Shown piece by piece: positions 7,086 through 24,860 of a stretch of 64,000 nt of DNA. The first letter of the stretch is position 1; each line of letters starts with the position of its first letter. The stretch is from an uncultured Acidimicrobiaceae bacterium (GTDB taxonomy: Bacteria > Actinomycetota > Acidimicrobiia > Acidimicrobiales > Bog-793): the NCBI GenBank assembly GCA_963841155.1, contig CAWJBM010000002.1, forward strand, positions 247,454 through 311,453, read 5' to 3'. A program made the position numbers and the translations under genes. The notes beneath the pieces were generated by a model, which did not search any database, had not been told where the DNA came from, and saw only the letters and a list, made by a program, of their open reading frames with translations.

Positions 7086-7232
7086 GAGCACCGTCCGCGT
7101 CGCGGCCTGGATCAGAAGGCGCTGGGGACCTTGGGGCTTGTGCCGGACCCGATCGATGAGCCCGACTTGACGCCGTTACGACGAACCGAGATCCTCGACG
7201 GCCTCATTCATGAGTACCGCCTCTTGGCGTGA
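7086..7232 (+). pseudogene. C-terminal remnant of an rve (IS481/IS3-type integrase-core) transposase
   Basis: In-frame from the IS1380 boundary: EHRPRRGLDQKALG...LRRTEILDGLIHEYRLLA*. This matches the classic ..YN.HRPH..L....RR..LGGLIHEY..AA* tail. Confidence 0.65.
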
Positions 7233-7388
7233 CCTGGTCGGATCGATTCTCGGCAGGCACAGGTATCGATGAACCTCGCCAACGCAGATGACGCCCCAGG
7301 AATCTTGACAACCCACCCCGCCAGCGCGAAACTGCACTTCAGGGGTACCTCCTCTCATTCACACCCTTTCTCAGCGACGGAGGGCGCT

Positions 7389-8422
7389 ATGCCCATTTCG
7401 CGACTTGTGAGGCGCTTTCCTCGGCGGTCCCTCGCTATCACCGCGGCCCCGTTGTGTACTGCGCTTGCACTTCTTTCTCTAGTCCTGGCTCCCGCGCATG
7501 CGTTCGCCTCCGACAGTCCGGGCAATTACTACTATGGTGCAGATAGTGGCAATCCCACAGCGCTGGGGACCGGACCCTATACGATGCCAACGGTGGGCGG
7601 AACGTTTGGAGTATACGTGGCTGAGGACGGACCTGGTCTGATATGCAGGGATGTGCAAGTTACAAGTATAGACTGATTAGCAATACTGATGTGACGGCCG
7701 CTAATTGGGAGTTCACCTCCCTGTACGGCTCAGTAGGTGAGCCGTGGCCCGAAGGCGCCGCCATGTATTGGTATATGGCTGGTCCTGGAGCCGACCCTGA
7801 GTACAATCCGAGCACGTACACCCTTGCTGAAGCGACAGCCTGGGGGAAAGAGCAGGCCGAAGCCGCGAACAGCTGGTGGCTGGCTCATGGACCCGGGATC
7901 ACTTCGGGCGTAGTGTTTATGGATATAGAGGGTGGCTATACCGCTGATGGAGTAAACTACGCGAACGGGTGGAATGAATGGGTGTACAGTTCTGGTACCG
8001 ATTGCGGAGAGATCATCTCTAGTGAGGATATACCGCCCGCCATCGATCGCGGGGTTGTGAATGGTTTTGGAACCTGTATCGACGGGCAGACCTTGACTTC
8101 CGCCGTCTACTCATCTCCCGATTACTGGGCAGAAACGTTCGGCACGTGCAGCAGCTCTAATCGTCCTGCCTGTCTTACTGAGACTCCCGAATGGACATCG
8201 GAGGGCGACTCGGGTTGTGCACTACCCGGTCCACATGGATGGGCTCAGGCTGCTGGTGTCTGTGGTGCGGAATCGGGCACGTTTTTCGGTGATGTTGGCA
8301 GCACTTACCAGCTCGGATGGCAATGGTGTGAAGCCAGTAGTCTTGACGACTATTGCAACCTCAACAATCAGCAGGACGCCGATTTCGATCAGTCCGATGC
8401 CTCCAACTGGCCGCTTGGCTGA
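7389..8422 (+). pseudogene. Secreted DUF1906-like (glycoside-hydrolase-like) protein, frameshifted
   Basis: ORF 7269..7676 supplies SD GGAGGG, ATG 7389 and a signal peptide (..ALALLSLVLAPAHAFA). ORF 7643..8422 supplies the rest. The two overlap in different frames between 7625 and 7676, so one shift there would join them. The region is visibly AT-richer than its surroundings. Confidence 0.6.
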
Positions 8423-8457
8423 TGAAGAGACTTAGCAGAATGGGGAGCTGAGAGTCC

Positions 8458-9204
8458 GTGATGGCGAGACGTGGCTACAGGAAATATCGGGGTCTGATGG
8501 TTGTCGGACTGCTGGTTTTGTCATTGATAGTGATAGTGGTGGCGCTTGGTGCGCCGGCCAGAGGCGTGTTGGCGCGAGTTCAAGCTTCGTCGCTTCGTAA
8601 TCATGCGGCTCGAGAACCGGCGGGCCGTACCGCGTCTCGGTCTAGGTCCAGGGAGGTCGCTGACGCGTCCGATCCCGTGTGTGCCGCGGGTCAGCTGGCT
8701 TTGTCGAGTCAACTTTACCAAGTGGGTATGCCGGGTGCCTTTGAGATCTATTCGATAACAAACGTGGGAGTCACGCCATGTAGCTTGGTGGGCGCGCCGA
8801 TCTTCGCCGCTAAGAATGCTGACGGACAGGCGGTCGAAGCCGACTCCGAGACTTTTAGCAATGCGGCGGGTGGCGCGGTGGAGAGCAGTGTAGCGGGCGA
8901 CCCAGTGGATCTTTCGCCGGGGGCGAGCGGTTCTTTCGCGGTGTGGTGGCAGAATTGCTCAGACCCCGTTCCCAGTTCCGGGTTGACGTTGCAAAACGTA
9001 ACCACGATTTGGACGTTCTCCGGTCAGGAGGCTGGGATCACTCGAGTCATGCCGAATGCCACGGTTAGCTGCCCGAATGTGGTTCTCGTGGCTTCTGAGA
9101 TTGAGCCTGGAGTCATGTCGAGTCCGCCTTGGTTGCCAGCGCCTTCAGCTGGGTTGCCGCCGGGAGGTGTTGCTCCGACCGAAGGTTCGCTGAGGAGCAA
9201 CTGA
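8458..9204 (+). CDS. Membrane-anchored secreted protein, DUF4232-like
   Basis: N-terminal TM segment (MVVGLLVLSLIVIVVAL). Then C..GQLAL....GMPGAFEIYSITNVGVTPCSLVG.P, a paired-Cys pattern typical of DUF4232. Confidence 0.55.
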   Translation: MMARRGYRKYRGLMVVGLLVLSLIVIVVALGAPARGVLARVQASSLRNHAAREPAGRTASRSRSREVADASDPVCAAGQLALSSQLYQVGMPGAFEIYSITNVGVTPCSLVGAPIFAAKNADGQAVEADSETFSNAAGGAVESSVAGDPVDLSPGASGSFAVWWQNCSDPVPSSGLTLQNVTTIWTFSGQEAGITRVMPNATVSCPNVVLVASEIEPGVMSSPPWLPAPSAGLPPGGVAPTEGSLRSN

Positions 9205-9226
9205 CGCACGCTGAGTGGGCCTTCCT

Positions 9227-9242
9227 GTACGCGCGTGCGTAC
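9227..9242 (+). terminator. Possible hairpin terminator after 8458..9204
   Basis: GTACGC-GCGT-GCGTAC is a perfect 6-bp stem followed by TTAT. The U-tract is weak. Confidence 0.3.
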
Positions 9243-9366
9243 TTATCGCAGTTGGCTACCTGCCCAGCTTGACAGGTGGCTGTAGCAATGAGAGCCGGGT
9301 GAACAAGTGTTGAGCCGATATCGGAGTCTGGCCGGATTTATAGGGGCGAGAAAAAGCCGATCCTCA

Positions 9367-10452
9367 ATGTGGACCCCACCTAGCGGACCGATCGGTACTG
9401 GAGTGTGGGTTCCCGTCGGCGCCGCTCTTCTCATTATGTTCTCTTCCTGCACGAGCGCGTTGCCGCACGGATCCCGCACTACAACACGACATGCACCCCG
9501 ACCGTCGGTCGAGATCACGGGATTCCGCTGGAGCCAGGTTCAAACGAAAAGTGCTCCGCCGCCACGGGTCATGGCGCAGATGGCCTACGATACCGCTAGC
9601 GCTCAGCTGATCTTGGTCGGCGGCGAGCGCCAGGTCGAGACCCAATCTACGCCGATCATAAAGGCCACAGCCCTCGACGACACCTGGGTTCTCTTGGGAA
9701 CCACCTGGATTCGCCTTCACCCCATCACTTCGCCTCCAAAGGAACCGCTTACCGCCGCGTACGATCCCGCCAACAGGCAACTGATCCTCATCGCGGCGCC
9801 TCTGCGCACTCGGGCCGGGCGAGTGCTCCCTTCTACCACGTGGACGTGGAGAGGACGGACCTGGTCGAGGCTTGCTGGAATGACGCCGAACCCGGGCACG
9901 AACGGCGAGGACATGGCATACGACTCGGCCACGCGTCAGCTCGTGTTCGTCGGTGGAGGCACCTGGGTGTTGAGAGACTCAAAGTGGCGTCGCGTGTCGG
10001 TTCTGCAACCAATGATTACGGCCATTGCGTTCGACCCATTGAGCGACAGACTCGTGGGCGGCTCAAGTCAGAGCGAGCGCATGTGGTGGTGGGACGGGCG
10101 GCAGTGGAGGGAGTACGCAGAGCCGCCAAGCTTGGAGCTGAATCCCGTGTACAACCCGGAGCCGTCGGCCAACTGGGTCACAGACACTGCGGTCAACGAA
10201 ATCTTCGTCGAGGGCGACTGCGGCTTCACGCCAAGCGGCAAGCAGGCATACGCTTGTACCTGGAGCGGTGATGTCTGGGTCCCGATTCTCACGGCGTCCA
10301 CTCCTGCGATTGACAATCCCGAGAACTTCTCTCTTGCCTACGATCCGCCACTCCACGCCGTTGTCGCCTTTGGAGGTGACCAAGGAGTGCGAACCCCTGC
10401 CGGTGACTGGATCGTTGGAGGCAGTCAGACCTGGTTTCTGACCCATGGCTAG
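9367..10452 (+). CDS. Kelch-like beta-propeller lipoprotein candidate
   Basis: Lipobox-like LLIMFSSC. Repeated units of the form ..MAYD.A..QL.LVGG....DTW.L.G..W.. (Kelch-type). Confidence 0.6.
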   Translation: MWTPPSGPIGTGVWVPVGAALLIMFSSCTSALPHGSRTTTRHAPRPSVEITGFRWSQVQTKSAPPPRVMAQMAYDTASAQLILVGGERQVETQSTPIIKATALDDTWVLLGTTWIRLHPITSPPKEPLTAAYDPANRQLILIAAPLRTRAGRVLPSTTWTWRGRTWSRLAGMTPNPGTNGEDMAYDSATRQLVFVGGGTWVLRDSKWRRVSVLQPMITAIAFDPLSDRLVGGSSQSERMWWWDGRQWREYAEPPSLELNPVYNPEPSANWVTDTAVNEIFVEGDCGFTPSGKQAYACTWSGDVWVPILTASTPAIDNPENFSLAYDPPLHAVVAFGGDQGVRTPAGDWIVGGSQTWFLTHG

Positions 10453-10659
10453 GTGTAGGGCACCAGTATTCCGATCGCTCATCGGAGCGCCAGATGCAGG
10501 TCGGCTTCGGGAAGAGCGCCCCGGATTGTCTTTGAAAGTGGCGCGCGACCCACCAGCGATTGCGCTGTCGTCATCCGGTCGTCCAATTGAGAAGGCCAAT
10601 GCCGGGTGACCGCAAACGGAGCGACCAGAGGTGTGGACAATTCGGCCAGCGAGAAGCTC

Positions 10660-10870
10660 GACTACGCGGCGGCTTGGTACTCGTGGATGATCCCACCCAG
10701 CACGTCGCGACGGCCGATGTCGCTGAACGATGAGGCAGCAGAGGTCACTGCGCTGAGTGGTGCGGGCACTTGGAGTCGAAGGCCGAGGTGAGGCCGATGC
10801 TGGTTGTAATGCCGGACGTAGTCGCGAAGGACGGCTTCGAGATGGGGACGGCCGAGAACGAGCGTGTTGG
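10660..10870 (-). pseudogene. C-terminal remnant of a second rve-type transposase
   Basis: Minus-strand translation: ..TLVLGRPHLEAVLRDYVRHYNQHRPHLGL...RRDVLGGIIHEYQAAA*. The upstream limit is ambiguous because it abuts or overlaps the IS256 remnant. Confidence 0.65.
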
Positions 10871-11344
10871 GTGCATAAATCCGCCAACATCCTCGATGCC
10901 CTGCCCAAATCCATCCAGCCGCTCGCGAGGAAGATGCTCGCCAAGGTGAGAGACGCCGAGGACCGTGAACATGCCCGAGACGCCGCCAAGGCCTTCGACA
11001 ACGAGTTCCATGCCAAGTGGCCGAAGGCCGCCGAAAAGCTCCGCGACGACCTCGAGCCGTTGTTGTGCTTCTTCGACTTCCCCGCCGAGCACTGGGTGCA
11101 CCTGAAGACCTCGAACCCGATCGAGTCGACCTTTTCGACCGTGAGGCTCAGGACAAAAGTGACCAAGGGCCCGGGCTCGCGAGCTGCCGGGCTCGCCATG
11201 GCCTTCAAGCTCATCGAGGCCGCAGAGGACCGCTGGCGTTACGTCAACGGTGCCGCGCTCGTCGCTCTCGTGCGCGCAGGTGCAACGTTCCGAAAGAGGG
11301 TATTGGTCGAGACCGTTGCGAAACAGGAGGAGGTCGCCGCGTGA
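10853..11344 (+). pseudogene. IS256-family (Mutator-type) transposase, C-terminal fragment
   Basis: ..RACWVHKSANILDALPKS..EFHAKWPKAAEKLRDDLEPLLCFFDFPAEHWVHLKTSNPIESTFSTVRLRTKVTKG.. is the conserved IS256 C-terminal half. The N-terminal half is absent. Confidence 0.8.
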
Positions 11345-11776
11345 TCAGCGGGTCGGGCCGATCCACAACTTTTGACTATTCCTCTCAGCCAACGCTCCGA
11401 GACCTGTACGGTCGTGGTCCGACTGCCACTTTTGCAAGGTCTCCGGCGGGTAGTCGTGAGGTCTGATGCGATCGACGAGGTCGTGGTGGGGCTTGCAGAG
11501 CAGCACCACGTTTGCGTAGGCGGCTCGTTTCTCATCTGACATATTGGGGTCGTACCGAGCGGAGTTCGGCTTCGCACCCCGGATGTGCGAGATGTGCACG
11601 TTGACGACCGGGACACCCTCCGCGAACTCGATCACCGGTCGATGGCATCCGGGGTAGTAGCAGGTGCCCTGCGAGAGGGCGAAGAGCGCTTTCTCCGTTC
11701 CGCTTCTGTAGTCACGGGGCCCGGGCATCGGCAAGCAGTCTACGGAAACCCTGTGACTGCCTTGCCTCGTGCTCAT
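11345..11776 (-). CDS. HNH endonuclease
   Basis: 143 aa. CYYPGCHRP....VHISHIRGAKPNS.RYD....NVVLLCKPHHDLVD is a His-Me finger pattern. Confidence 0.75.
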   Translation of the reverse strand: MSTRQGSHRVSVDCLPMPGPRDYRSGTEKALFALSQGTCYYPGCHRPVIEFAEGVPVVNVHISHIRGAKPNSARYDPNMSDEKRAAYANVVLLCKPHHDLVDRIRPHDYPPETLQKWQSDHDRTGLGALAERNSQKLWIGPTR

Positions 11777-12183
11777 GCCGGTTTACGACACGGACGCCAC
11801 AGGTCAGGTGATCTGGGTGCTTCCGCTGGTAACTACGATGCAGGCGCTCAAGCGCGTAATCGGCGTGATGAGTGGGTGGCCGTGCAGGGCAGGGGGCTCG
11901 GCTCTCGGCGCGCCGCTCGAAGCACTCTCAAACCCCTCACCGGGCGTCGTCGATCCCGATATCACACGTCAGCGTCGGGGCATTCTCCTCGGACAAGGGC
12001 ATAAAGTTGATCGATCCGTGCACTGACCTCGTGGTTCGAGAATCATCCCATCATCTCCCACAGTAACCGCGAGCACGCCGCGCGTCTGGAGGAAGGAGAA
12101 CTTGACTCGGACGCAGCACGCTAGTACAACCCCGAGAGGAGGCAGAAGATGTCACAGGGATAAGCGCGCTATAACTTTGGTTG

Positions 12184-12210
12184 CCCTCGCCCTCTGGGCG
12201 GGGGTTTTTT
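12184..12210 (+). terminator. Rho-independent terminator
   Basis: CCCTCGCCC-TCT-GGGCGGGGG forms 9 bp with one G-U pair, followed by TTTTTT. A 4-codon mini-ORF (ATG 12149, MSQG*) with SD GAGGAGG sits 20 nt upstream. Confidence 0.7.
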
Positions 12211-12234
12211 GTATGTGTGTCGGAGGAATTGACG

Positions 12235-13102
12235 TTGGCAGACACGAGCGATGAGCGTCGTTTGTGGTCAGTTGTGAACGTGATCACTAACCTCGGAGAC
12301 ATATGCCGACTTGCCTTACTGATTGGACCGCCTCTGTTCTTCGGTTTGAGTTGGTCACGCGGAGTGTGGGCCCATCACCCACTTGTGCGGTACGTCGAAG
12401 TCAGCTCCTTGCTACCTGTCGGTCTCATTGTCGGAGTCACCGTGGTGCACCCGTGGCTCTCTCAGTTTCTCGTGCGAAGACAATCCTCGCTCGAGGATGT
12501 GCGATTTGAGGTTCACGCCCGGTTCAGAAACGGTAAACGTGTACCCACCGAATGGACGCAAGTCAGAGAGTTGAGAGTTGCGAGCTCTGAAGGAGGGAGT
12601 CGACGAAATAAACATCTTCTATGGTTATGGCGATAGCTCCCGGGATGTCAAAATCGACGTCATGAATGGCGGGCGTGTCGCAGAACAATGGCAGGCGGGA
12701 GACGGCCGCTGGTACGCGCAGATTCGATTTCCACAGAGCCTGCGGAAGCATGAACGACACACAATACGGCTGGGTTATCAACTACCAGAGCAAGCGCCAG
12801 AGTGTCCTCCTTATTGCACTGTGACTGCCGCTGAGCTCATCAGGAACCTCGTGATAGAAGTGGACTTCGGTACTAGGAATGCAGTACCGGAATCTATAAA
12901 GAGCGCCTATTGGGTGAGCGATGTGAGTAGCATCCGTTGCATTGATGGCGCGCTACATGCGGACAAGAATGGAGTAGTGCGATACCGCAATCGGCGCACG
13001 AAGCCTGGACACCGTTACGGCATTGTATGGGATTGGGGAGATCCCCGGTCCGCAACAGCCCCTGCACAAGAAGGGACCGGCGTAGCGAGCCGGAACGCGT
13101 AG
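12235..13102 (+). pseudogene. Hypothetical 2-TM membrane protein with soluble C-domain, apparently frameshifted near 12575
   Basis: TTG 12235 lies 7 nt after GGAGGA. The frame of ORF 12181..12636 ends at 12636, and ORF 12578..13102 continues in the +1 frame. AT-richer patch. No family recognised. Confidence 0.4.
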
Positions 13103-13390
13103 AGGAATCTCGAGTGAGGAGCTGCGAACGGCTTTTGAGAACCGCCAGGCAGCCGCGCTTGCCTCTTTGCTTGCCGAAGCGGAAGACGTTGATCGGGCGA
13201 CGCTAATCGTCGAGCGACTCCTCGAGAGACTTTTGCACTGACTTCCACAGTACCGACAGATGATGCCCGTTAACTCCTTCAACCGCCCCTCGTATAAACG
13301 GCTGGACGTCCACGGTGCGGCGAGTGCAACAAGATCAAGGGGCGCTCAGCCACCTCGTCAACGAGGTCCCGGCAGCGTATTGGTGCCAGA

Positions 13391-13447
13391 CCGGAGTTTG
13401 GCGCGACTTTCGCGTCGTTCCAGGTAGATGAGGTCGCGGAAGAGACG
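13391..13447 (-). mobile_element. Terminal 57 bp of an IS1634/IS4-like remnant (copy A), separated from the rest by the IS21 insertion
   Basis: The reverse complement continues the alignment of 19608..20095 with copy B (33040..33531) through ..CATCTACCTGG.ACGAC..GAAA..CGCGCCAAACTCCGG. Both copies lose similarity at that point, which marks the IS end. Confidence 0.7.
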
Positions 13448-13609
13448 TGTCAACGGCCAGTTTGTGGTACCCACTGGTGGCCAGCAAAAGTACCCACCCC
13501 TCTTGGTGCTTTGCTTTGACGATCGCGGTTCATTTCCTTGATTCAGATCGTCTGTGCCGGCGAGCGGCCAACCCTTCGATCTCGGGCTGACCGCAACACC
13601 AGCGAGCTC

Positions 13610-14098
13610 TCAGATGCTGTCGCTCACCTCCTTTGCAGCCGTCTCCGTCGTCGGCGCTCCACGCGGCAGTTTCGCCCCGGCAGATCGCTGGCGTGCCTCT
13701 TTCATGCGGAACGACTCGCCGTCGGTGACAACGACGATTCCGTGATGCAGGAGTCGGTCGAGCATGCTGACCGCCGTCGTGTGCTCGGGCAGGAACCGGC
13801 CCCACTGGTCGAAGGGCCAGTGGCTGCCGATCCCGAGCGAGACGCGCTCGTAGGCCGCTGCCACGAACCGGAACAGCAGCTGTGCACCGGCGTCATCGAG
13901 CGGGGCGAAGCCAAGCTCGTCGACGATCACGGCGTCCGCACGGAGGATCTGCTCGATCACCTTGCCGACGGAGTTGTCTGCGAGCCCTCGATACAGCGTC
14001 TCGACGAGCTCGGCCGCGGTGAAGTAGCGCACCCGCTTTCCCGCTTCGACGGCGGCATGGCCGAGGGCGATGAGGATGTGGCTCTTGCCGGTGCCGGC
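13610..14098 (-). pseudogene. istB: istB, C-terminal part (from the Walker A motif onward)
   Basis: Begins AGTGKSHILIALGHAAVEAGKRVRYFTAAELV..AVIVDELGF.. (Walker A and B of the IstB AAA+ helper). Confidence 0.85.
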
Positions 14099-14423
14099 AG
14101 AGATAGCGACAGACTGCAACATCTTCGGCAATCACTGCCGTGCGAGGTACGCGTCACGGCGCCTACGCACCCGTTGTTCGGCCGCCTGCTTCGAGCATCG
14201 GGGTTCAGGCGGCGCAGCGGCGTGCTGCTGCTCGTGGTGGATCTTCCCGATGGAACGCCGGGCACGATTCGCGCCGACGCCACCAACGCGTTCGTGGATG
14301 CGGTCGCCGATGTCCCTTTGACGGTCCTTTCGGTCGAAGGAATGCGCCAGCTCCGCCGGCTGACCGCCGCGCTGGTGATTGCCTGGTCGCGTGATCGTCG
14401 TGTCCGGAAGGACCGAGGCGGGA

Positions 14424-14660
14424 ATGCGTGACGCTTCTGACCGGCGTGCGAGGGAGGCGTTCTCGTGCGAATCGTGCGGGCGGTTCATCGTCACGGCCGT
14501 CGAAGGCCTGTTCCGCAACTCTCGGGTGGGGTCTAGAACCCGCTTCTGCTCGCCGAGCTGTCGACAGGCCGCCTATCGCCGCCGTCGTGCCGGCGTCGAC
14601 GAGAACGCGCCTCGCCAGCGCAAGGGCGGACGAGGGCGACGCCTCGGCGAGCGGCCGTGA
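14424..14660 (+). CDS. Small zinc-ribbon-like protein
   Basis: MRDASDRRAREAFSCESCGRF....RFCSPSCRQAAYRRRRAG, a C-x2-C ... FCS-x2-CRQAAYRRR motif. The ATG overlaps the stop of an upstream open frame. Confidence 0.5.
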   Translation: MRDASDRRAREAFSCESCGRFIVTAVEGLFRNSRVGSRTRFCSPSCRQAAYRRRRAGVDENAPRQRKGGRGRRLGERP

Positions 14661-14827
14661 TCTCCCGAGTTCTCGCATGAGACGTCGGGTCAGAGCCAGT
14701 TGGCAGAGCGGCGATGACGTGTCTGGCGTCGATGCCAGGTGTCATCTCGCCGCCGACGGCGGTCCGCGACCCTCCCCAGACGCGCAAATAGGCTCGACCG
14801 ACCCTGTACGCGCCAACGAACTGGGAG

Positions 14828-15013
14828 GTGAGCCTTTTGCGAAGGCTCAGGATAGCCGCGCCCACTCAGCTGCCCCTGGATCTCGACGGGGTGGCCCCGA
14901 CACCGACACAGCGGTGGTCGATGTTGCCCGAGACCGCACGCGAGCGCGTGCTCGTGCTGCTCGCCCGCCTCATCGCCCGCGGGGTGCTCGACAAGGAGGA
15001 CTCCGATGAGTGA
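14828..15013 (+). CDS. Small accessory ORF overlapping the recombinase start
   Basis: 61 codons with a GC3-rich coding look. Its stop TGA 15011-15013 overlaps the recombinase ATG 15006 (ATGAGTGA). The start codon is uncertain. Confidence 0.45.
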   Translation: MSLLRRLRIAAPTQLPLDLDGVAPTPTQRWSMLPETARERVLVLLARLIARGVLDKEDSDE

Positions 15014-17336
15014 CCTGTTGTCCAAGCTGACGCCGGGCCACCTCGGCCGCGACGCCTACATCTACGTGCGCCAGTCGACCCTCACCCAGGTCCGCGAGCA
15101 CACCGAGAGCCTCGAGCGCCAGTACGAGCTCGCCGATCGCGCCATGAACCTCGGCTGGCAGCCGCGCCAGGTGGTCATCGTTGACGAGGACCTCGGTCGT
15201 TCAGGCGCCGAGGCGACCGCCCGGGAGGGCTTCAAGGGACTCGTCGCCGACGTCGGTCTCGGGAAGGTGGGGATCATCTTCGGGATCGAGGTCTCCCGCC
15301 TCGCCCGCAACAACGCCGACTGGTACCAGCTCCTCGATCTGTGCGCCATGACCGACACGCTGATCGCCGATGGGGACGGGCTCTATCACCCGGCCGACTT
15401 CAACGACCGGTTGGTGCTCGGGCTGAAAGGGACGATGTCAGAGGCTGAGCTCCATCTCATCCGTCACCGGCTCACGGCCGGGCTGCGGCACAAGGCGGCC
15501 AAAGGTGAGCTCCGCCAGGGGGTGCCCGTCGGTTACTGCTACGACGCCGATGGCCGTATCGTGATGGACCCCGACGAGTCCGTGAGAGCGGCGATCGCGA
15601 GCGTGTTCCGGCTCTTCGACGAGGTCGGCACCGCCAGGCAGGTGATGTTGGTGATGCAGTCCGACGGGCTGCTCGTGCCTCGACGGCCGACGGCCTCGCG
15701 CCGGGTCACCTGGGCCCGGGCCAGCTACCCGTCGATCCACGACTTCCTTACCAATCCCACCTACGCCGGCGCGTTCGTGTTCGGCCGCACCCGCACCGAG
15801 AAGCGGCTCGACGAGAACGGTCGCCTTGTCGTGCGCACGCGTCAGGTGCCCCGCTCGGAGTGGGAGGTTCTGATCCCCGACCACCACGCCGGCTATGTCT
15901 CCTTCGAGCGCTACGAGGCGATCCAGGACGAGCTGCGCGCCAACTGGCACCCGCCGAGAGGCGAAGGGGGCGGTCCCGCCCGCGAGGGCACGGCGTTGCT
16001 GCAGGGCCGTCTGCGGTGCGGTCGGTGCGGGCGGATGATGCAGACCGGCTACTCGGGGGCGAAGGGCAACTGCCCGCGCTATGTTTGCGGACGGGCGCGC
16101 ATGCTCTATGGGAGCGAAGGGTTCTGCCAAAGCCTCGGTGGCAGGCGCCTGGAGCAGCGCGTGCTCGACGAAGTCTTCGCCGTTCTCGAGCCGGCGGCCT
16201 TGGCAGCGACGGCCAAAGCGCTCGAGGAGGCGGAAGCCCTTCACGCCAAGCGCCTTTCGGCTTTCGAACTCGCGGTGGAGCGTGCTCGCTTCGAGGCCGA
16301 TCGGGCTCGCCGCCAGTTCGACGCTGTCGAGCCAGAGAACCGGCTCGTCGCCCGCACGCTCGAGGCCGCCTACGAGCAGGCGCTCGTGGCGCAGCGACAA
16401 GCCGAGGCGGATCTCAGCGTCCAGCGTTCTCGTCAGCCGACGAGACTGACGAGTGAGGAGCTCGCCTGGGTCGCCCGGGCAGGAGCCGACCTGCGTGCGG
16501 TCTTCGACGCTCCGACGACCACGTACCGGGAACAGAAGCAGCTGCTCCGGGCGGTCGTGGCAGAGGTCGTCGTGACGGTGCGAAAGGACGATCGTGAGGC
16601 CGACCTGCGCATCATCTGGGAGGGCGGTGCGACGACGGAGTTCGTGATGACGCTCACCAAGATCGGTGGTCACTTCCGCACGACCGACGAGGACACCGTC
16701 GATCTCGTGCGCCGCCTGGCCGCCCGCTACGACGATGCCACCATCGCCGTCATCCTCGCTCGCCAGCATCGCCGCACTGCCAGCGGGCTCACGTTCACCA
16801 AGACCCGCGTGGCGAGCCTCCGGGTGTCCAGGCAGATCGCCGTCTTTCGACCCGAGAGTGTCACACCCACCGACGATGATGTCGTCGTGGTCGGAGTCGG
16901 CCGAGCAGAGCAGATCCTCAGGGTCTCCAGGTCCACGATCTACCGGTGGCTGCGCGACGGGTTCATTGCCGGCGAGCAGCTGACCGCAGGGAGTCCCTGG
17001 CACCTCCGCATCGATGCCGCCATGCGGGCCAAGGTGGTTGCTGAGGTTCCCGAGGGTTGGGTCGACCTGGACCGGGCGGCAATCGCGCTCGGCGTGGCCC
17101 GCCAGACGGTGCTCGACCGCATCCGTCGTGGTGAGCTTCGAGCGGTTCACGTCAATCGGGGCCGCCGCCGAGGCCTCGCCATCGAGATCGCACCGCAGGG
17201 ATCAACGAGGCTCTTCGAGAACGCGCCGGTTGGGGGGCCGAACCGAGTATCAAACGGTCCAGATGGGACCATGCGAGCAGGCAAAGCCATCAGGTCAGGC
17301 CGAAAACACCAGCAACCGCTGGGGTCTTTGGGCTGA
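15006..17336 (+). CDS. Large serine recombinase
   Basis: 776 aa. N-terminal resolvase domain AYIYVRQSTLTQ..SLERQ (catalytic Ser), recombinase domain, Cys-rich zinc-ribbon (CGRCGR...CPRYVC), coiled-coil, and a C-terminal HTH-like repeat (STIYRWLRDG; ARQTVLDRIRRGEL). Confidence 0.9.
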   Translation: MSDLLSKLTPGHLGRDAYIYVRQSTLTQVREHTESLERQYELADRAMNLGWQPRQVVIVDEDLGRSGAEATAREGFKGLVADVGLGKVGIIFGIEVSRLARNNADWYQLLDLCAMTDTLIADGDGLYHPADFNDRLVLGLKGTMSEAELHLIRHRLTAGLRHKAAKGELRQGVPVGYCYDADGRIVMDPDESVRAAIASVFRLFDEVGTARQVMLVMQSDGLLVPRRPTASRRVTWARASYPSIHDFLTNPTYAGAFVFGRTRTEKRLDENGRLVVRTRQVPRSEWEVLIPDHHAGYVSFERYEAIQDELRANWHPPRGEGGGPAREGTALLQGRLRCGRCGRMMQTGYSGAKGNCPRYVCGRARMLYGSEGFCQSLGGRRLEQRVLDEVFAVLEPAALAATAKALEEAEALHAKRLSAFELAVERARFEADRARRQFDAVEPENRLVARTLEAAYEQALVAQRQAEADLSVQRSRQPTRLTSEELAWVARAGADLRAVFDAPTTTYREQKQLLRAVVAEVVVTVRKDDREADLRIIWEGGATTEFVMTLTKIGGHFRTTDEDTVDLVRRLAARYDDATIAVILARQHRRTASGLTFTKTRVASLRVSRQIAVFRPESVTPTDDDVVVVGVGRAEQILRVSRSTIYRWLRDGFIAGEQLTAGSPWHLRIDAAMRAKVVAEVPEGWVDLDRAAIALGVARQTVLDRIRRGELRAVHVNRGRRRGLAIEIAPQGSTRLFENAPVGGPNRVSNGPDGTMRAGKAIRSGRKHQQPLGSLG

Positions 17337-17387
17337 CCTGGACCGAATGATCAAGTCGATGAAAGGAAAGCGCAGTGTCAACCATGT

Positions 17388-17728
17388 CCGGCCGGCCCCA
17401 CAAGGCACGGGTTCTCCCGGGCATCGATCCACTCGAGCGATGCCAGGTAGTCAAAGGTCCCCCGTGGGATCGAGGAAGCGTGCACGTCGAAGTCCTCGAG
17501 CGACTTCGAGACGGGAAAGCGTGCTTGTTTCAACCTCGCCATCGCGTTGGAGGCGTCCCTGCTCTCGATCTCGGCTTCGACGAGGGTCCGCAGCAGCTCC
17601 ACCGGCGCCCAGCGCTGGGTCTTGGCGACGGCGAGGACATCGGGCCCGATGCGGCGCATGGTGGCGAGCTTGAGACGCCGCAGGCCTGCCACGAGATCGG
17701 CGGGCAGCTCGGCCGGCGGGGCGCTCAT
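17388..17728 (-). pseudogene. istB: istB, N-terminal part
   Basis: MSAPPAELPADLVAGLRRLKLATMRR...FDYLASLEWIDARENPCLVGPAG, then runs into the cassette. The ATG overlaps the stop of the upstream small ORF (ATGA). Confidence 0.85.
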
Positions 17729-17988
17729 GAGGTGGTCTCCATGAGCCGGCGGGCGAAGTGCAAAAGTGCCGAGCGAAGCTCGCACACGCCGTAGCCGGGG
17801 GCATATGCCTGCATGGCCGCGTGCATGAGTCGGGGCTCGGCCTTCAACCAGCCGGCCACGAACTCGAGCATCTCGGCGCACTCGTATCTCTCCTCGGGTG
17901 CGAGCACCTTCGAGCTTTCGGGGCCATCGACATGCTCGACGCCCTCCTCGTTCGGATCAAGCCCGGAGCTTCCCTGCGGCGGGGTCAT
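17725..17988 (-). CDS. Hypothetical 87-aa protein encoded between istA and istB
   Basis: GC3-rich codon usage. Its ATG 17988 overlaps the istA stop (ATGA) and its stop overlaps the istB ATG 17728 (ATGA). No family recognised. Confidence 0.6.
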   Translation of the reverse strand: MTPPQGSSGLDPNEEGVEHVDGPESSKVLAPEERYECAEMLEFVAGWLKAEPRLMHAAMQAYAPGYGVCELRSALLHFARRLMETTS

Positions 17989-19445
17989 CGGAGCTCTCCG
18001 AAGCCGTAGGCGGACAGGGGCCTGGTGGGAACTTCGGGGAAGGCGGCACTGAGCGGCTCGCCGACCGCCTGCAGGCGGGGCACACCCGCGCCGGCATCGA
18101 GGATGGAGCGCACATCGGCGAGGGAAAAGCGCGAGTAGGTGGTCGCCCGCTCGAGTGCACAGATAAGCGCGTCGCGTCCGTAGGCGCTCTCGAGGGCCAC
18201 GATGGCCCCGAGCTCGCCGCCGAGCTTGCTCGCACCGCCCGCCGCCGCGGCCTTCAAGAACGCCATGCCCACCTCGCCGAGACCGACCATGGCGTGCTCG
18301 GCCGCGGTACGAGGCCGGGGCGCCCGCTGCGGTAGAGGCCGCGGACCGCCATAGTGGTCGTCGTTGATGGACGTCTCACCCGGTGCCACGAGATCGTGCA
18401 AGGCCATCTCGACGCCGAGATGCACGACGGCGAGCTTGCCGCCGGCGACCTCCACCTCGACCTGCTTTCCGATGAGGCGCATCGGGACCGAGTAACGGGC
18501 CGAGCCGAAGCGCACGCAGCTGAGCTTGTCCACCTTTCGGATGACCGCCTTTGCGACGCGGGGGCGCAGCGACGGCAACGGGGAGAACAGCGGTGCTTCG
18601 ACCCTGAGCCGCTCGGTGGGAATCGCACAGATCTCCGAGTGCTCGACGCAGTTGACCTCCTCGCACCACGCGGCCGCGGCGACATTGGCCGAGGCGAGGT
18701 CGAAGAACGGGACCTGCGGGACCATGAGGTCGGCCTTGGCGTAGCCCACGAGGTTCTCGACCAGTCCCTTCGACTCCGGGTCGTTGGCCTCGCAGAAATC
18801 CGGCCGGAAGCGATAGTGGGCGGCGAAGCGGACGTAGGCCGGTGTCGCCACGACGAGGTTGGCCACCACGCCTGCTTTGAGGCAACCCATGCGATCGGCC
18901 AGCACCACCTTCGGCACCCCGCCCAGGAGCTCGAAGCAATCGATCAGCATCGAAAGCGTCGTGTCGGAGCGCTCGTTGTCCGAAAAGCGCACAAAGCGCC
19001 ACCGGCTCCAGGCCGACACCGCACAGAACACGTGCAGGCCGAACTCCGAGCCCCAGTCGATGACGAGTGTCTCGCCCGGGCTCCAGATCGCCGGGCGCCG
19101 TCCCCGGTGGTGCTCGTCGCGCCAGTCGCTCTTTGTCCTGGCGACAAGACGTCGGAAGTTGCGGGCCGAGCCGGTGTAGCCGGCGGCGCGTGCCTCGGGC
19201 AGGAGACGCTTGGCCGAGATGCGCCCGCTCGTCTTTCTCACCTTGGTGGCCACGATGCCCGCGACGACGTCGTAGTTCCTCTTGCGCTCGGCCGCCTTGT
19301 CTTGAGTCGCGTCCCGTTCTTCGCGTTTGAGCACTGCACGCTTCACGGTCCGGTGCGTCGTGTTGCAGATTGCTGCGGCGCCCCGGTAGCTGCCCACCTC
19401 TCGGTAGGCGGCGATGATGTCCATTGTCTGCCTCACTGATTTCAT
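17985..19445 (-). CDS. istA: IS21-family transposase IstA
   Basis: MKSVRQTMDIIAAYREVGSYRGAA.. (HTH) followed by an rve-type core ..VIDWGSEFGLHVFCAVSAWSRWRFVRF... I chose ATG 19445; the listed ORF extends further 5'. Confidence 0.9.
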   Translation of the reverse strand: MKSVRQTMDIIAAYREVGSYRGAAAICNTTHRTVKRAVLKREERDATQDKAAERKRNYDVVAGIVATKVRKTSGRISAKRLLPEARAAGYTGSARNFRRLVARTKSDWRDEHHRGRRPAIWSPGETLVIDWGSEFGLHVFCAVSAWSRWRFVRFSDNERSDTTLSMLIDCFELLGGVPKVVLADRMGCLKAGVVANLVVATPAYVRFAAHYRFRPDFCEANDPESKGLVENLVGYAKADLMVPQVPFFDLASANVAAAAWCEEVNCVEHSEICAIPTERLRVEAPLFSPLPSLRPRVAKAVIRKVDKLSCVRFGSARYSVPMRLIGKQVEVEVAGGKLAVVHLGVEMALHDLVAPGETSINDDHYGGPRPLPQRAPRPRTAAEHAMVGLGEVGMAFLKAAAAGGASKLGGELGAIVALESAYGRDALICALERATTYSRFSLADVRSILDAGAGVPRLQAVGEPLSAAFPEVPTRPLSAYGFGELR

Positions 19446-19607
19446 GGTTCTGTCCTCCGGTCGGAGCGGTGTTTGGTTGGCACCGCCACCGTGTCCGGCC
19501 GGAGGGCACGAACGGTGGATGTTCAGTGAGGGGTGGGTACCTCTACATGGCCACGAGTGGGTACCTCGTCCTGGCCACACGCGGGTACTTTTTCATGGCC
19601 ACGGACA

Positions 19608-20095
19608 AGACGTGTCCCCCTACGCGTGAGCTGAACGCCCTGGTCAGGCGATTTCGGCCTTGGACCAGGTCGAGGTGTCGACGGAGAGGGCCCGGAGCAC
19701 CTTGGCCTAGAGGGCGCTGCGCCGGTTCACGAGCTTGATCTGGCAGTCGCCGGCGGAGATGTGCTGTAACCGGACCTCTTTCAACACCGAGAGGGCCCGC
19801 CGTGGCGTCATCGACTGGAAGGCCAGGTTGGGATCGGTCAGCTTCGCGTTCACGAGGTCTTGTGCCATGACGGCCTCGATGGTGGCCGCTAGCACGCAGA
19901 GCGCCACGTGTCCGCGCACCCGGGCCTCGGTCCAGTGGAACATCGGCCGCAGCGACAAGAAGTCCCTCATCACCCGGAAGCGGCGTTCGATTGACTGCAG
20001 GCTCTTGTAGTAGCGCAGCACCTGGGCGGCAGAGGCCTCTGAAGTCGTCAGCGATGTCGTGATGACGAGGCGCCCGAAAGGAACAGGTCAGGAAC
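19608..20095 (-). pseudogene. IS1634/IS4-like transposase 3' remnant (copy A)
   Basis: ORF 19707..20021: LRYYKSLQSIERRFRVMRDFLSLRPMFHWTEARVRGHVALCVLAATIEAV... is the C-terminal DDE-E region. DNA-level homologue of 33040..33531 in inverted orientation. The right limit is approximate. Confidence 0.7.
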
Positions 20096-20232
20096 TGGGG
20101 GGTTGAGTACAGGCGGCAACACGGCCTGTAGGGCAACGGTGCCCTCACACAGCACGGAGCCCCGGGAACGAGCCTGCACCGTCCCGTACGTGTGGCAGGG
20201 TAGTCACCGCCTAGAGACCAGGAGAGTCGGCG

Positions 20233-20679
20233 ATGGATGTGATATGGCGGCCTGAACAGGATGGAGATGTGATCCCGGCGCTCGCGCTCCTAATGGAGCT
20301 CTTGCGGGAGCTGGCAAACGCCGGTGAGGAGCTTACTGAGGCCGGCTTGCCGGTCGCTCACTCAAAGGCCATCGAGGAGCGAGCTGCTGGCACGGCCGCG
20401 AGAAGCGCTGATTTTGGTGAGACCGTCTACGCGGCCCACAGCGCCGCTGCTGTTCAGCGCTTCGCGGCGACAGATCACCTGCGACAGTTCGCCAAAATGT
20501 TCCAGACTGCGCCAGTTCCTGTCTACTCGCACCTATGTGTCGAGAGGTCGTCGCTTGAGACAGCGGCGCTCAGTTACTGGTTCACAGAGCCTGGAATAGG
20601 AGCCGATGCCAGGGTACGTAGTGCGTCCAAGCCTCGCCAGCTGCTCATCGCTGGCACCACCCAGCATGTCCGAAATTAG
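20233..20679 (+). CDS. Hypothetical protein
   Basis: 148-aa ORF, helical-looking, no recognisable motif. The coding strand is not certain. Confidence 0.3.
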   Translation: MDVIWRPEQDGDVIPALALLMELLRELANAGEELTEAGLPVAHSKAIEERAAGTAARSADFGETVYAAHSAAAVQRFAATDHLRQFAKMFQTAPVPVYSHLCVERSSLETAALSYWFTEPGIGADARVRSASKPRQLLIAGTTQHVRN

Positions 20680-20972
20680 CGTGCCCGTGTAAGGCAGCGA
20701 GATGCCATCGACGGACGTCGTCTTTTCGTTCGCGATCAGCCGCCACCCGAACGAGGCGGCATCCGCTCGGACTCGCGGCACAACGTGATCTCGAGGGCCC
20801 CGCCAGCCGTGACGAGCTCGTGCACGCAAAAGCCGCGTGTTCGCGAATACGCGGCCTATCGATTACGCGTCGTTACCGGTAGGGCCTCCATCCGGGCAGG
20901 TCAGACGTTTGTGTCACACTCCGCCGGTACGATTTCAGCATGGATGAGGTAAAGGACGAGGCGACCACTCGC

Positions 20973-22651
20973 CTATTAGCCTCAAAAATCCGTGCGACCC
21001 CGGGAAACTGACGGCGAACGGTCGAGCCGTGACGATGGGGTGACAGTGAGGGCGCTTGGCCGTGGCAGGGCGCGACGAGTCAGAGCTTCGTGCTCTTGTC
21101 AGATGTCACGCCCTCGGGAGACTCACCGTTGTCGGGTCGGGCGCCGGGACCCGGGTTGTTATGGGAACGCGGTCCGCAGCCTGAGAAATGCTCGCCTGAG
21201 CGCTGCTGCCCACGGCCATGTCTCGTCTAGGCGCAAGATGAGCCGGTGCCCACGACGCACGAGGACGGCGGCAACGTGCAACAGCCGGTAGCGGAGCGTC
21301 TTCGGCTCGGCCTCTTTGAGCTCGCCATCCAGGCAGGTCATCTGCGCCCAGGAAAGCAGCGCCCCGGCGACGAGACTCGTGGCCACCCAGGCGAGGTTCT
21401 GGGTGAAGCTCGCGAACGGCAGGTTCTGTAACCCGCAGTCTTTCCAGCACCGGACCCTGTCTTCGACGCGGGCATGGCCGCGTTGGCGAAGCTCGAGTGC
21501 AGCGGCGTCGATGTTCAAGGCATTCGCGTTCGTGATGAAACACGTGTGCCGGAAGCCCTCCGAGGTGTCGAACAAGCTGAGCTGGGCCCCTGGATGAGGA
21601 CGCTCTCGCCGGCAGATGAGCCGTGCATCTTCACCCCAGGTGGACAAGTCCATGGGATCTGTGAGCTCTGCCACCCATGCACCGTCGCGGACGGTCCCGT
21701 CCACCTCGATGGCTTCGACCCAGTCCTCTTCTTGGAACAACAACAAGGCCTCCCTGACACCTGAGTCGACAGGGTGCCCGATCGAGTACTCGATGTTTGC
21801 CTCCGTGAGGCCGGAGACAAAGTCGTGGGTCGCCCCAGCCGAGTCGGCCCTCACGAGAATGTGATGTCGCACCAGGCCGGGGTCGTCACCGGGCTCGTGA
21901 CCTACCTGGTACTCCGGCGGGAGAGCGGCGATCGCCTGGTCCAACAGCTCGAGGTGATCATCGGCGTCGTTCGAGCCGGCGTTGCCCGGACGCAGCATCA
22001 ACGCGAGAGGCTCTCCGGTCGTGTCGCACCAGGCGCCGAGGGGATGAAATCCATAGCCATGCTTGTACGTCGGGGCAGCATCCTGTTTCTCCGAGTGAAC
22101 ATCAACAAGCGTGGCGTCGAAGTCGATCGTGATGTCACCTTGTGGCGCCTCGGCCCAGACGATCTCCCGTGTCTTTGCCACGGCCCCTCTGATCGCGCGC
22201 AGCTCTGGAGCGGTCGTGGCCTTCACCGCTCTCCAGGCGGTCGTCACCGACGCGACCTCTCCAAACAGCTCGGACTGTTTCCGAAGCGCGTCGATGTCTT
22301 TGAGGCAGTCGGCTCCGTCGGCAATGGCGATGGCGAGATGGGTGAGGACCACGCCAGGATCGTGGGTGTTCCACAAGATGCCGCAGTCGGCCATCGCCTC
22401 GGACAACCCGTGTGTCAGCCCAGTGCGATCGGCCAGCTCCGACAGCATCGCGGTGCCGGCGTGCGAGACGAGATTGCGGCCGTCGGTGGTGACCTCGGCC
22501 TGACGGACCGAGCGGCTACGATGCACCTTCAAGGAGGCCTCCTCCTGGGTTGTTTGACTGCTTAGGAACACAGTCATTCTCCCAGTTGAGGAGGCCTTTT
22601 ACGCGGATACTGGCAGTCTCATGCCGCTATCGCGCGAAAAATCGAGGTTAG
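20973..22651 (-). mobile_element. IS1380-family insertion sequence, copy 2 (inverted relative to copy 1)
   Basis: Aligns to copy 1 end to end. The outer end is ..ATCGAGGTTAG and the inner end is a degenerate CTATTAGCCTC... No flanking direct repeat. Confidence 0.8.
21159..22577 (-). CDS. IS1380-family DDE transposase
   Basis: 472 aa, collinear with 5484..6902. Roughly nine-tenths identical by eye, with substitutions scattered throughout. Confidence 0.85.
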   Translation of the reverse strand: MTVFLSSQTTQEEASLKVHRSRSVRQAEVTTDGRNLVSHAGTAMLSELADRTGLTHGLSEAMADCGILWNTHDPGVVLTHLAIAIADGADCLKDIDALRKQSELFGEVASVTTAWRAVKATTAPELRAIRGAVAKTREIVWAEAPQGDITIDFDATLVDVHSEKQDAAPTYKHGYGFHPLGAWCDTTGEPLALMLRPGNAGSNDADDHLELLDQAIAALPPEYQVGHEPGDDPGLVRHHILVRADSAGATHDFVSGLTEANIEYSIGHPVDSGVREALLLFQEEDWVEAIEVDGTVRDGAWVAELTDPMDLSTWGEDARLICRRERPHPGAQLSLFDTSEGFRHTCFITNANALNIDAAALELRQRGHARVEDRVRCWKDCGLQNLPFASFTQNLAWVATSLVAGALLSWAQMTCLDGELKEAEPKTLRYRLLHVAAVLVRRGHRLILRLDETWPWAAALRRAFLRLRTAFP

Positions 22652-22729
22652 GTAGAGGCTCGTCACCGTCTGACACCTTGTCGGCGCCGGTCTCGTTCGC
22701 AACCAACACCACGACGCTCAAGGAGACCA

Positions 22730-24624: not shown

Positions 24625-24813
24625 CGGGAGCGGGCGCTGAAAAAGGCCCGCCCGTGAGAACCGCCGTGAGAACCATAGCTCCGCCAAAGCCGGAAAAAGG
24701 AGGTGACGGGCGGTTGTCGGCGGTCGTGTCGGTTCGGATGAAGTCACTGGTAGAGGGCACTATTGGTAACGAATTGCCACGACCGGTTTCCAAAGGAAAA
24801 TGCCCCGGGCAGA

Positions 24814-24860
24814 ACTACGGATCAGAAGGTTGGAGATTCGAGTTCCTCCGAGCGCGCTGA
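24814..24860 (+). repeat. tRNA-Arg(ACG)-like 3' half, right att-type direct repeat
   Basis: Matches 2920..2966 at 46/47 positions. The single difference (A at 24834) breaks a T-stem pair. No tRNA 5' half lies upstream. Confidence 0.75.

Follow-up and report, generated by a model that had tools for sequence, protein, structure and literature searches.

Serine integrases that interrupt a host gene and restore it on excision are known from SPbeta (SprA, in spsM), skin (SpoIVCA, in sigK) and the fdxN element (XisF), and phiRv1 integrates into the REP13E12 repeat of Mycobacterium tuberculosis. Elements that target other mobile elements include IS4321 and IS5075, found in the inverted repeats of the Tn21 family, and the "res hunters" Tn5053 and Tn402; ICEscreen is said to have recorded serine-recombinase integrative and mobilizable elements (IMEs) nested in genes of integrative and conjugative elements (ICEs). 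Large serine recombinases (LSRs) can converge on one conserved intragenic site, as in a Mg-chelatase/ComM-type gene or a prolyl isomerase gene (Durrant et al. 2022, PMC10083194), and serine-recombinase elements nested in other elements are likewise known (PMC9585547). Here we describe a small LSR cassette in a 64,000-nucleotide stretch (the window) of contig CAWJBM010000002.1, from an uncultured Acidimicrobiaceae bacterium. The cassette splits the istB gene of an IS21-family insertion sequence (IS), which is itself inserted in the remnant of an IS1634-family element.

Taken as a whole, we are confident that this locus is a true four-level nest, and that its innermost layer is an istB-targeting LSR element with the integration mechanism proposed below. 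Nests of insertion sequences are commonplace, and this one, though real, is unremarkable. Its cassette belongs to a widespread, target-specific and apparently undescribed family rather than being a one-off passenger.

A cassette in the Walker A codons of istB

The two parts of istB flank the cassette on the minus strand, with the PF01695 (IstB) profile matched over positions 3-104 at 17378-17881 and 101-237 at 13610-14131. The split pieces read ...NPCLVGPAG|HG* and ...S|AGTGKSH, the integrated N-terminal frame passing the right CCGGC and stopping two codons into the cassette; joined, they form the Walker A motif GPAGTGKSH. The rebuilt IstB is 95% identical over its full 274 aa to an intact IstB (P0121), which has the same P-loop. 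Empty sites, i.e. uninterrupted istB genes, are present on contigs L016-L021, and the six contigs encoding P0121 read ...GGGACCG GCCGG CACCGGCAAG..., with the pentamer occurring once. In the window, CCGGC stands at both cassette borders, and the cassette boundary is thus exact only to 5 bp. The first-pass annotation of this DNA had placed the cassette inside istB at 14099-17387, which is correct within this ambiguity; that the cassette belongs to a family targeting this exact site had escaped it.

A genome scan with an alignment of the LSR gave 237 relatives, from which 80 loci were kept. Hosts comprise Acidimicrobiia, Mycobacterium interjectum, Nocardioides immobilis, Pseudonocardiales, Propionibacteriales and others, and multiple copies in one genome are frequent. 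Among 61 genome loci with both cassette ends, the motif xGxGK[ST] is encoded on the left in 55, ...Gxx on the right in 55, and both in 52. In these 52 the cassette occupies the same P-loop codon, always antisense, and the host gene is nearly always istB. When the IstB profile was run on six-frame translations, the two parts flanked the LSR on the opposite strand, the C-terminal one (~110-255) on the left and the N-terminal one (1-116) on the right, the profile breaking at positions 110-116 with a contig-edge match in L064 as the sole stray. The register to the Lys codon is the same in every locus checked, and the C-terminal parts of the host IstBs have a median pairwise identity of 34%. Exceptions lie in an AAA_22 (TniB/ExeA-like) P-loop (L092), an AAA_30 (RecD-like) P-loop (L083), lgt (L076) and an unknown gene (L050). 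Cassettes on 3-4 kb contigs from bins named Bradyrhizobium (L047) and Sericytochromatia (L075) probably reflect binning errors rather than host range.

Near-identical cassettes occupy very different hosts. Within single genomes, cassette pairs at least 99.8% identical (L036/L038, L080/L081 of Mycobacterium interjectum, L069/L072 and L077/L079) sit in IstBs that are 28-41% identical, with no homology between the flanks. The exact 776-aa LSR of the window is found on 8 contigs, most of ~3.5 kb, a size that is the signature of an assembly-breaking repeat, and the identical cassette (99.9-100%) has at least two left and at least two right flank types; the left flanks are two IstB C-terminal parts, AGTGKSHILIALGHAAVE and PGVGKTYLACALAHCAIR, and the right flanks two IstB N-terminal parts. 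A second LSR, P0077 (73% identical to that of the window), shows the same arrangement in two further IS21 types. Furthermore, in L009 and L010 a P0077-type cassette occupies the window's own IS21 lineage (99.3-99.5% over 2.2 kb). With different cassettes in one IS21 lineage, two cassette lineages must have reached the same site.

The full-text literature searched, whose coverage leaves most subscription journals outside, holds no description of istB or IS21 as an LSR target, and IstB and IS21 are unmentioned in the text and 8 supplementary files of the LSR survey (PMC10083194).

Some contigs have mixed flanks. L003, L004, L006 and L007 (3.5 kb) carry the window-type cassette (99.9%) with a left flank of one IstB type and a right flank of the window type, which may be a repeat assembly artefact or a real rearrangement. 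On a 538-kb contig (ENA ERZ25039544), L009:4953-10470 contains a chimeric istB: the left C-terminal part belongs to another IS21 type (..GTGKSHLATALAAQACQ), and the right side has the IstB N-terminal part, the 87-aa open reading frame (ORF) and istA, all 99.5% identical to those of the window IS21. This chimera suggests that cassettes residing in different IS21 copies have undergone exchange. The L009 composite is bordered directly by a full-length IS1634-like element.

Cassette ends, joints and proposed crossover

The cassette is defined by end motifs at fixed spacing, the left end reading pentamer-N7-GCGACAGACTGCAAC and the right GCGCAGTGTCAAC-N5, which can also be given as GCGCAGTGT(C/T)AAC-N5-pentamer. 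Its LSR has a catalytic Resolvase domain (PF00239, E = 2.7e-19) with a YVRQS motif invariant in 13 homologues, Recombinase (PF07508) and zinc-ribbon (PF13408) domains above their cut-offs, and a C-terminal extension of ~230 aa with two excisionase-type helix-turn-helix (HTH) motifs. The best NCBIfam match is XisF and the closest solved relative is SPbeta YokA (E = 6e-7), both weak. No DUF4368 match was found in the window LSR by Pfam scan. A weak match to NF033518 (IS607) spans residues 692-722 with 17 bits against a 110-bit cut-off; given this score and the LSR architecture, membership of the IS607 family was rejected.

Upstream of the LSR, a conserved block at 14775-14830 combines a -10-like hexamer TAGG(C/T)T with the Shine-Dalgarno sequence GGAGGTG, and is predicted to act as promoter. 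The small, conserved orfY behind it has no Pfam match. The cassette lineage of the window has ~480 extra bp between orfX and the promoter-like block, with a 93-aa ORF whose motif is CxxC...FCSxxCRxxAYRRRR.

At the left end, every cassette inspected has orfX (~110 aa; RDSDRLQHLR...LPCEVRVT...HPLFGRLL...LPDGSPGTI...) in frame from its first base and, when integrated, without a start codon of its own. At the right end, the LSR stop codon is followed by a Shine-Dalgarno sequence (AAAGGAG or AAAGGAA) and, within the conserved motif, a GTG. Given the fixed end spacing, this GTG falls in the orfX frame if the ends join. Hence orfX is divided between the two ends, with its ribosome binding site and start on the right and its body on the left, and the gene is complete only across the joint. 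The protein belongs to a small stand-alone family (372 cluster representatives, no informative fusions). It has no Pfam or NCBIfam match; its confident AlphaFold2 model (predicted local distance difference test score 82) shows one helix, then a small barrel of five strands and a second, long helix, for which Foldseek against the PDB returned only weak SH3/Tudor/KOW-like matches, all with E > 0.01.

Joined ends are seen directly in two contigs. Most orfX homologues begin with antisense host P-loop sequence (..GLAGAG|RDSD), and two begin VSTTTD|RDGD and VLIGSG|SDGE. In the contigs encoding these two, L102 and L103, the order is LSR 3' end, stop codon, Shine-Dalgarno sequence, right end, one pentamer (CCGAC or CCGGA), left end and orfX. 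The L103 joint would fit a circle.

When the cassette is integrated, an in-frame ATG or GTG seven codons ahead of orfX (window 14075-14098) is provided by the antisense of the conserved istB His codon that follows GK(S/T), and the upstream extension of orfX reads M/V-x-L-A-G-A-G|RDSD. Judged by reading frame, orfX might therefore also be translated when integrated, from a putative start provided by the host.

A probable crossover position was derived by comparing junctions, with the plus-strand pentamer numbered c1-c5. Almost all right junctions have CCG as c1-c3, and the variants TCG and CTG track the cassette lineage; at the left junction c1-c3 is CCG, CCC, CCA or CCT, varying as host codon wobble does. 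Past c5 the sequence is cassette on the left side and host on the right. As c1-c3 differ in origin at the two junctions and the sequence past c5 differs, only c4c5 can be shared. In 38 of 66 non-redundant insertions c4c5 is equal at both junctions, compared to 14.7 expected from the marginal frequencies, and the off-target insertions L050 (CC) and L076 (AC) share exactly c4c5 and nothing else. An arm dyad GCAGT/ACTGC, counted by eye, centres on c4c5, and an alternative, TGTC/GACA, on c3c4. Crossovers at c1c2, c2c3, c3c4 or to the right of c5 (c6-c8, CGG) each conflict with the junction table, and c4c5 fits best. This places the probable crossover of the window at the GC at 14097-14098 and 17391-17392, with an element contribution of 3294 bp. 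Serine-integrase sites are short, with imperfect dyad symmetry and conservative exchange at a central dinucleotide without duplication. The arms at fixed spacing, the one pentamer in both empty site and joint, and an exchange mapped to 2 bp would suit such sites; the mismatched dinucleotides in the other 28 insertions, however, would not.

The nest and its neighbourhood

Removal of the cassette leaves an IS21 that matches four uninterrupted copies, L016-L019, along its entire length (19607 to 13448), at 92.8% identity over 2871 bp; homology ends exactly at both border bases, as the first-pass annotation had it. The ends are TGTC...GACA, starting TGTCAACGGCC and finishing GGCCACGGACA, and form an imperfect inverted repeat with repeated GGTACCC-type motifs. 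IstA scores 192 bits with NF033546 (cut-off 160 bits). With IstA, a downstream IstB, TG...CA ends and a short target duplication in the 4-8 bp range, the element has the hallmarks of IS21. Its 5-bp duplication AGACG, noted previously, is read on both sides and corresponds to a single ATACG in a second IS1634-family copy of the window (copy B); one insertion site of the uninterrupted lineage (contigs L016 and L017) has AACGG duplicated. An exact-protein look-up of the 486-aa IstA found no record, and the rebuilt IstB was used as query in its place. Stop and start codons of the 87-aa ORF between istA and istB overlap those of its neighbours; gene calls include it in each of the uninterrupted relatives L016-L021, and it matches no family.

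The alignment of the rejoined IS1634-family remnant to copy B, suggested at first pass, was run: 13391-13447 joined to 19613-20095 aligns on the opposite strand with 33531 down to 33015, at 88.9% identity over 522 nt with 6 gaps. In the proximal piece, a single minus-strand frame codes for the C-terminal ~125 aa of the transposase, and the middle fragment of copy B covers NF033559 profile positions 153-248 (E = 4.7e-24). As fragments only, these two score 85-87 bits, below the 100-bit cut-off set for whole proteins. A full-length relative in L009 (568 aa, DDE_Tnp_1) has 83% nucleotide identity. The homology of this relative, copy B and the remnant stops at one base (33531/13391), which is thus the element terminus, so that the IS21 does sit 57 bp from the end. 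Both window copies are without the opposite end, and this terminus is the only one defined. Between the truncation point of the remnant and the second IS1380 copy lies a segment of ~880 bp (20096-20976), which has no family match, including for its 148-aa ORF (20233-20679).

The containment order, cassette within istB within IS21 within the IS1634-family remnant, is borne out by the Pfam and NCBIfam matches and the alignments, as are the four family labels (that of IS1634 from fragment scores) and the position of the nest between two IS1380 copies. Two separate assemblies carry its junctions. Contig L001 (14.5 kb, 98.2% identity) is colinear over 5011-17388, crossing the IS1634/IS21 and istB/cassette junctions, and contig L002 spans both cassette junctions at 99.98% identity and breaks exactly at 13448.

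Composites of IS21 and cassette transpose. In the closed genome OY970155.1 two such composites (L031 and L032), 99.92% identical over 5297 bp, lie in different places with their own 5-bp duplications, AACCA and CGCGT. Thus an IS21 with a broken istB still moves as a unit and carries the cassette, IstB presumably being supplied in trans.

Table 1 Features of the nest and its surroundings in the window
Feature	Position	Strand	Basis or remark
LSR cassette	14099-17387	+	3289 bp, 3294 bp counting one CCGGC; end motifs in 75 loci
CCGGC, left att (attachment site) homology copy	14094-14098		proposed crossover GC at 14097-14098
orfX body, 110 aa	14099-14431	+	starts at first cassette base; kept in all cassettes inspected
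Extra ORF, 93 aa, zinc-finger-like	14379-14660	+	zf-FCS E = 9e-4, under Pfam cut-off, weak
Conserved non-coding block upstream of orfY	14775-14830	+	alignment of 10 diverse cassettes; blast match 14775-14879
orfY, ~61 aa	14828-15013	+	overlaps LSR start; motif W..LPE..R..VL.LLARLIARGV
Large serine recombinase, 776 aa	15006-17336	+	Resolvase, Recombinase and Zn-ribbon domains
Cassette right end	17358-17387	+	Shine-Dalgarno AAAGGAAAG, GTG 17375-17377, ATG 17384-17386; in orfX frame once joined
CCGGC, right att homology copy	17388-17392		CCG cassette-derived (cross-locus comparison), GC proposed crossover
istB C-terminal part, AGTGKSH to stop codon	13610-14098	-	Pfam IstB_IS21 101-237, E = 8.7e-37
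istB N-terminal part, MSAPP...NPCLVGP	17393-17728	-	Pfam IstB 3-104
87-aa ORF between istA and istB	17725-17988	-	gene-called in uninterrupted copies too
istA transposase, 486 aa, intact	17985-19445	-	NF033546, rve, Mu-transpos_C_2
IS21 element carrying cassette	13448-19607	-	6160 bp, ~2866 bp without cassette; end-to-end alignment
AGACG, left copy of IS21 5-bp target duplication	13443-13447		copy B: single ATACG
AGACG, right copy of IS21 target duplication	19608-19612		read directly
IS1634-family remnant, distal 57 bp to element terminus	13391-13447	-	colinear with copy B 33472-33531
IS1634-family remnant, proximal piece, truncated ~20095	19613-20095	-	NF033559 profile 358-464 of 483, E = 1.5e-24
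Copy B, second IS1634-family copy, frameshifted, 5'-truncated	32332-33531	+	paralogous empty site
IS1380-family copies, two	5399-7084, 20977-22662	inverted	NF033539 278 bits (cut-off 180 bits); DDE_Tnp_1_4 in both
57-nt direct repeats, 91% identical	2910-2966, 24804-24860		
Xer-like tyrosine integrase	3080-4006		just downstream of first 57-nt repeat
IS256-family transposase fragment	10757-11344	+	
ISL3-family transposase, intact	25971-27275	+	

The two IS1380 copies are 88-90% identical. With IS256, ISL3, IS1380 (twice), IS1634 (twice) and IS21, this part of the window amounts to a graveyard of insertion sequences. The 57-nt direct repeats look like the att sites of an integrated island. The first-pass annotation took them for tRNA halves, which was not supported, ARAGORN and Rfam (gathering and E-value modes) finding no tRNA in the window; a T-arm-like GGGGATTCGAGTTCCTC is visible in the repeats by eye. 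Tandem repeats of ~270-273 bp at the window ends (1-1443 and 63409-64000; those at the right end are 96% identical) probably code for domain repeats in large surface-type proteins.

Proposed mechanism, alternatives and known systems

An old, decayed IS1634-family element was hit 57 bp from its end by IS21, giving the AGACG duplication. For the guest of that IS21 the following mechanism is proposed. The cassette, whose only recognisable mobility gene is the LSR, would excise as a circle of ~3294 bp, in which the right end (GCGCAGTGTCAAC-N5) and left end (N7-GCGACAGACTGCAAC) surround one CCGGN pentamer as the attachment site attP. The LSR is predicted to join attP to the antisense strand of the istB P-loop codons (G-P-x-G-x-G-K-S/T), crossing over at the dinucleotide complementary to positions one and two of codon x. 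Integration would be conservative, always antisense to istB, and would cut the Walker A motif, so that the IS should be disabled in cis; on excision, an unaltered GPAGTGKSH would be regained. The element hitch-hikes whenever the IS21 is transposed with IstB in trans, and orfX would be complete only in the circle. The anatomy, the empty sites, the attP-type joints, the recurrence in very divergent istB genes and the transposition of composites are seen in the sequences themselves; catalysis by the LSR, the exact crossover, the circular intermediate and the roles of orfX and orfY are inferred from them.

Put together, these elements can be read as widespread, mainly Actinomycetota, minimal LSR elements that are obligate guests of transposable elements and recognise the Walker A DNA of transposition ATPases, mostly IstB and occasionally AAA_22 or AAA_30 genes, with reversible switching-off of the host IS, riding on its transposition, a circle-only gene and exchange at unequal dinucleotides. 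We regard this combined reading as evenly balanced between right and wrong.

Several points weigh against the proposed mechanism. Recombination itself was not directly observed. The L102 joint (L102:637-1180, JGI 3300073325) is preceded only by the last ~160 LSR codons and lies next to an aminotransferase gene; instead of a circle, it may represent what is left of a decayed tandem copy, or a chimeric contig. A pattern scan of metagenome contigs for the attP joint (GCAGTGTYAACN{12,22}GCGACAGACTGCAAC) gave no matches; as joints were later found in another collection via orfX homologues, the scanned collection lacks those samples. No recombination directionality factor was identified, orfX and orfY being candidates only, with no family or fold match. 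The flanks of the short-read contigs L003-L007 may be chimeric. Finally, c4c5 differs between the junctions in 28 of the 66 insertions, and near-identical cassettes carry different c4c5 dinucleotides. To our knowledge, characterised serine integrases do not tolerate unequal crossover dinucleotides, which leaves doubt about either where the crossover falls or how strict the enzyme is. The mismatches can be explained either by an enzyme that tolerates unequal dinucleotides, with the heteroduplex resolved either way, or by another process that edits the bases.

Other accounts of the cassette fit less of the data. A transposon, cut-and-paste or replicative, that generates a 5-bp target duplication (CCGGC), its serine recombinase being a resolvase or passenger, would leave exactly the 5-bp repeats seen at the junctions of the window, L009 and L011-L014 and the single copy in the empty site. 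It is nonetheless very improbable: the joined form also has a single pentamer, c1-c3 of the right junction move with the cassette (including T variants found in no target), only 26 of 75 loci have identical pentamers, the off-target insertions have 2 bp in common rather than 5, and the cassette encodes no DDE or other transposase. CCGGC was rejected as a target duplication and is instead read as homology between the recombination sites around a 2-bp crossover. Constant position and orientation in every copy, together with the movement of composites as units (L031/L032), would suit a cassette that is fixed cargo of a variant IS21, having entered istB once in an ancestor and spread by IS21 transposition only. 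This can hardly be reconciled with cassettes at least 99.8% identical in IstBs 28-41% identical, with one IS21 lineage (99.4%) that holds two cassette lineages (LSRs 73% identical), with the existence of uninterrupted close relatives and attP-type joints, or with cassettes in non-IstB P-loop genes and lgt, and we give it scarcely any credence.

A third possibility is that repeat collapse or joining in a metagenome-assembled genome produced the nest, given that every layer is a multicopy repeat and that a number of short contigs stop at repeat borders or combine flank types. There is very little chance of this, since L001 and L002 independently carry the junctions, and two target duplications and colinearity with copy B are hard to obtain from misjoining. 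The order of events is a more even matter. Insertion of IS21 into the IS1634-family element, followed by the cassette entering istB last and in place, matches the containment order and the condition of the layers, the inner elements being intact and the outer one decayed (89% to copy B, truncated). However, composites transpose as units, and the window cassette may thus predate the landing of its IS21; the window features fit either order, and L002, which stops at the IS21 end, shows no other location of the exact composite. We consider the in-place order an even bet. The earlier statement that the order of insertion can be read directly from the sequence hence stands for containment, which is certain, and not for the timing of the two inner events, nesting not being a strict time order.

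The preferred account, a true nest with an istB-targeting LSR element inside it, describes a parasite of a parasite, whose landing pad is conserved, occurs in many copies, does the cell no harm and is mobile in its own right. It bears on how mobile elements find safe sites and regulate each other, as insertion should switch IS21 off in cis, reversibly, and a circle-only gene would be a simple sensor of element state. An LSR family that recognises a ~40-bp motif with wobble tolerance, and possibly tolerates unequal dinucleotides, is of interest for serine integrase engineering; exchange at a non-matching dinucleotide, if true, would be unusual for a serine integrase. The account also explains ~3-kb contigs common in Actinomycetota metagenome assemblies, and allows istB "pseudogenes" beside a "recombinase family protein" to be annotated correctly. 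Cultured hosts exist in Mycobacterium interjectum ATCC 51457 and Nocardioides immobilis.

Among known systems, the cassette resembles SPbeta, skin and the fdxN element in its Resolvase, Recombinase and Zn-ribbon LSR and in a conservative intragenic insertion whose excision would restore the gene, and phiRv1 in having a multicopy repeat as target. Unlike all four, it is only 2.8-3.3 kb long and has no phage or developmental cargo; its target is a protein-motif-coding stretch in a gene of another mobile element, with hosts ~34% identical; its LSR has the ~230-aa two-HTH extension; and a gene is split across attP. As in TnpX (Tn4451), TndX (Tn5397) and the multi-targeting LSR clade, the LSR is the sole mobility enzyme, many sites per genome are occupied, and there is a circular intermediate, here a predicted one, with a 2-bp crossover repeat at the integrated ends. 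Those systems have a fixed dinucleotide (GA or TT), loose targets and often DUF4368 (PMC10083194), whereas the cassettes use one codon position (52 of 61 loci) and a dinucleotide that varies (GG, GC, GA, AC...) and often differs between junctions, and the window LSR has no DUF4368 match; assignment to the multi-targeting clade was rejected on these grounds.

Like IS607, the cassette is a small element with a serine recombinase and a MerR/excisionase-type HTH, as far as the weak NF033518 match goes. The IS607 TnpA is small, with an N-terminal HTH and low target specificity, in contrast to the highly specific 740-776-aa LSR with C-terminal HTHs described here. Divergent recombinases acting on one conserved intragenic site are a trait shared with the convergent LSRs (PMC10083194), and location inside a gene of another mobile element one shared with the nested IMEs; unlike those and the nested IMEs, the host here is an insertion sequence that carries its guest on transposition. 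Finally, a conserved feature of another mobile element is the preferred target, as for IS4321/IS5075 and Tn5053/Tn402, but those elements use DEDD or DDE chemistry and DNA-site targets, rather than a serine recombinase and a stretch that encodes a protein motif.

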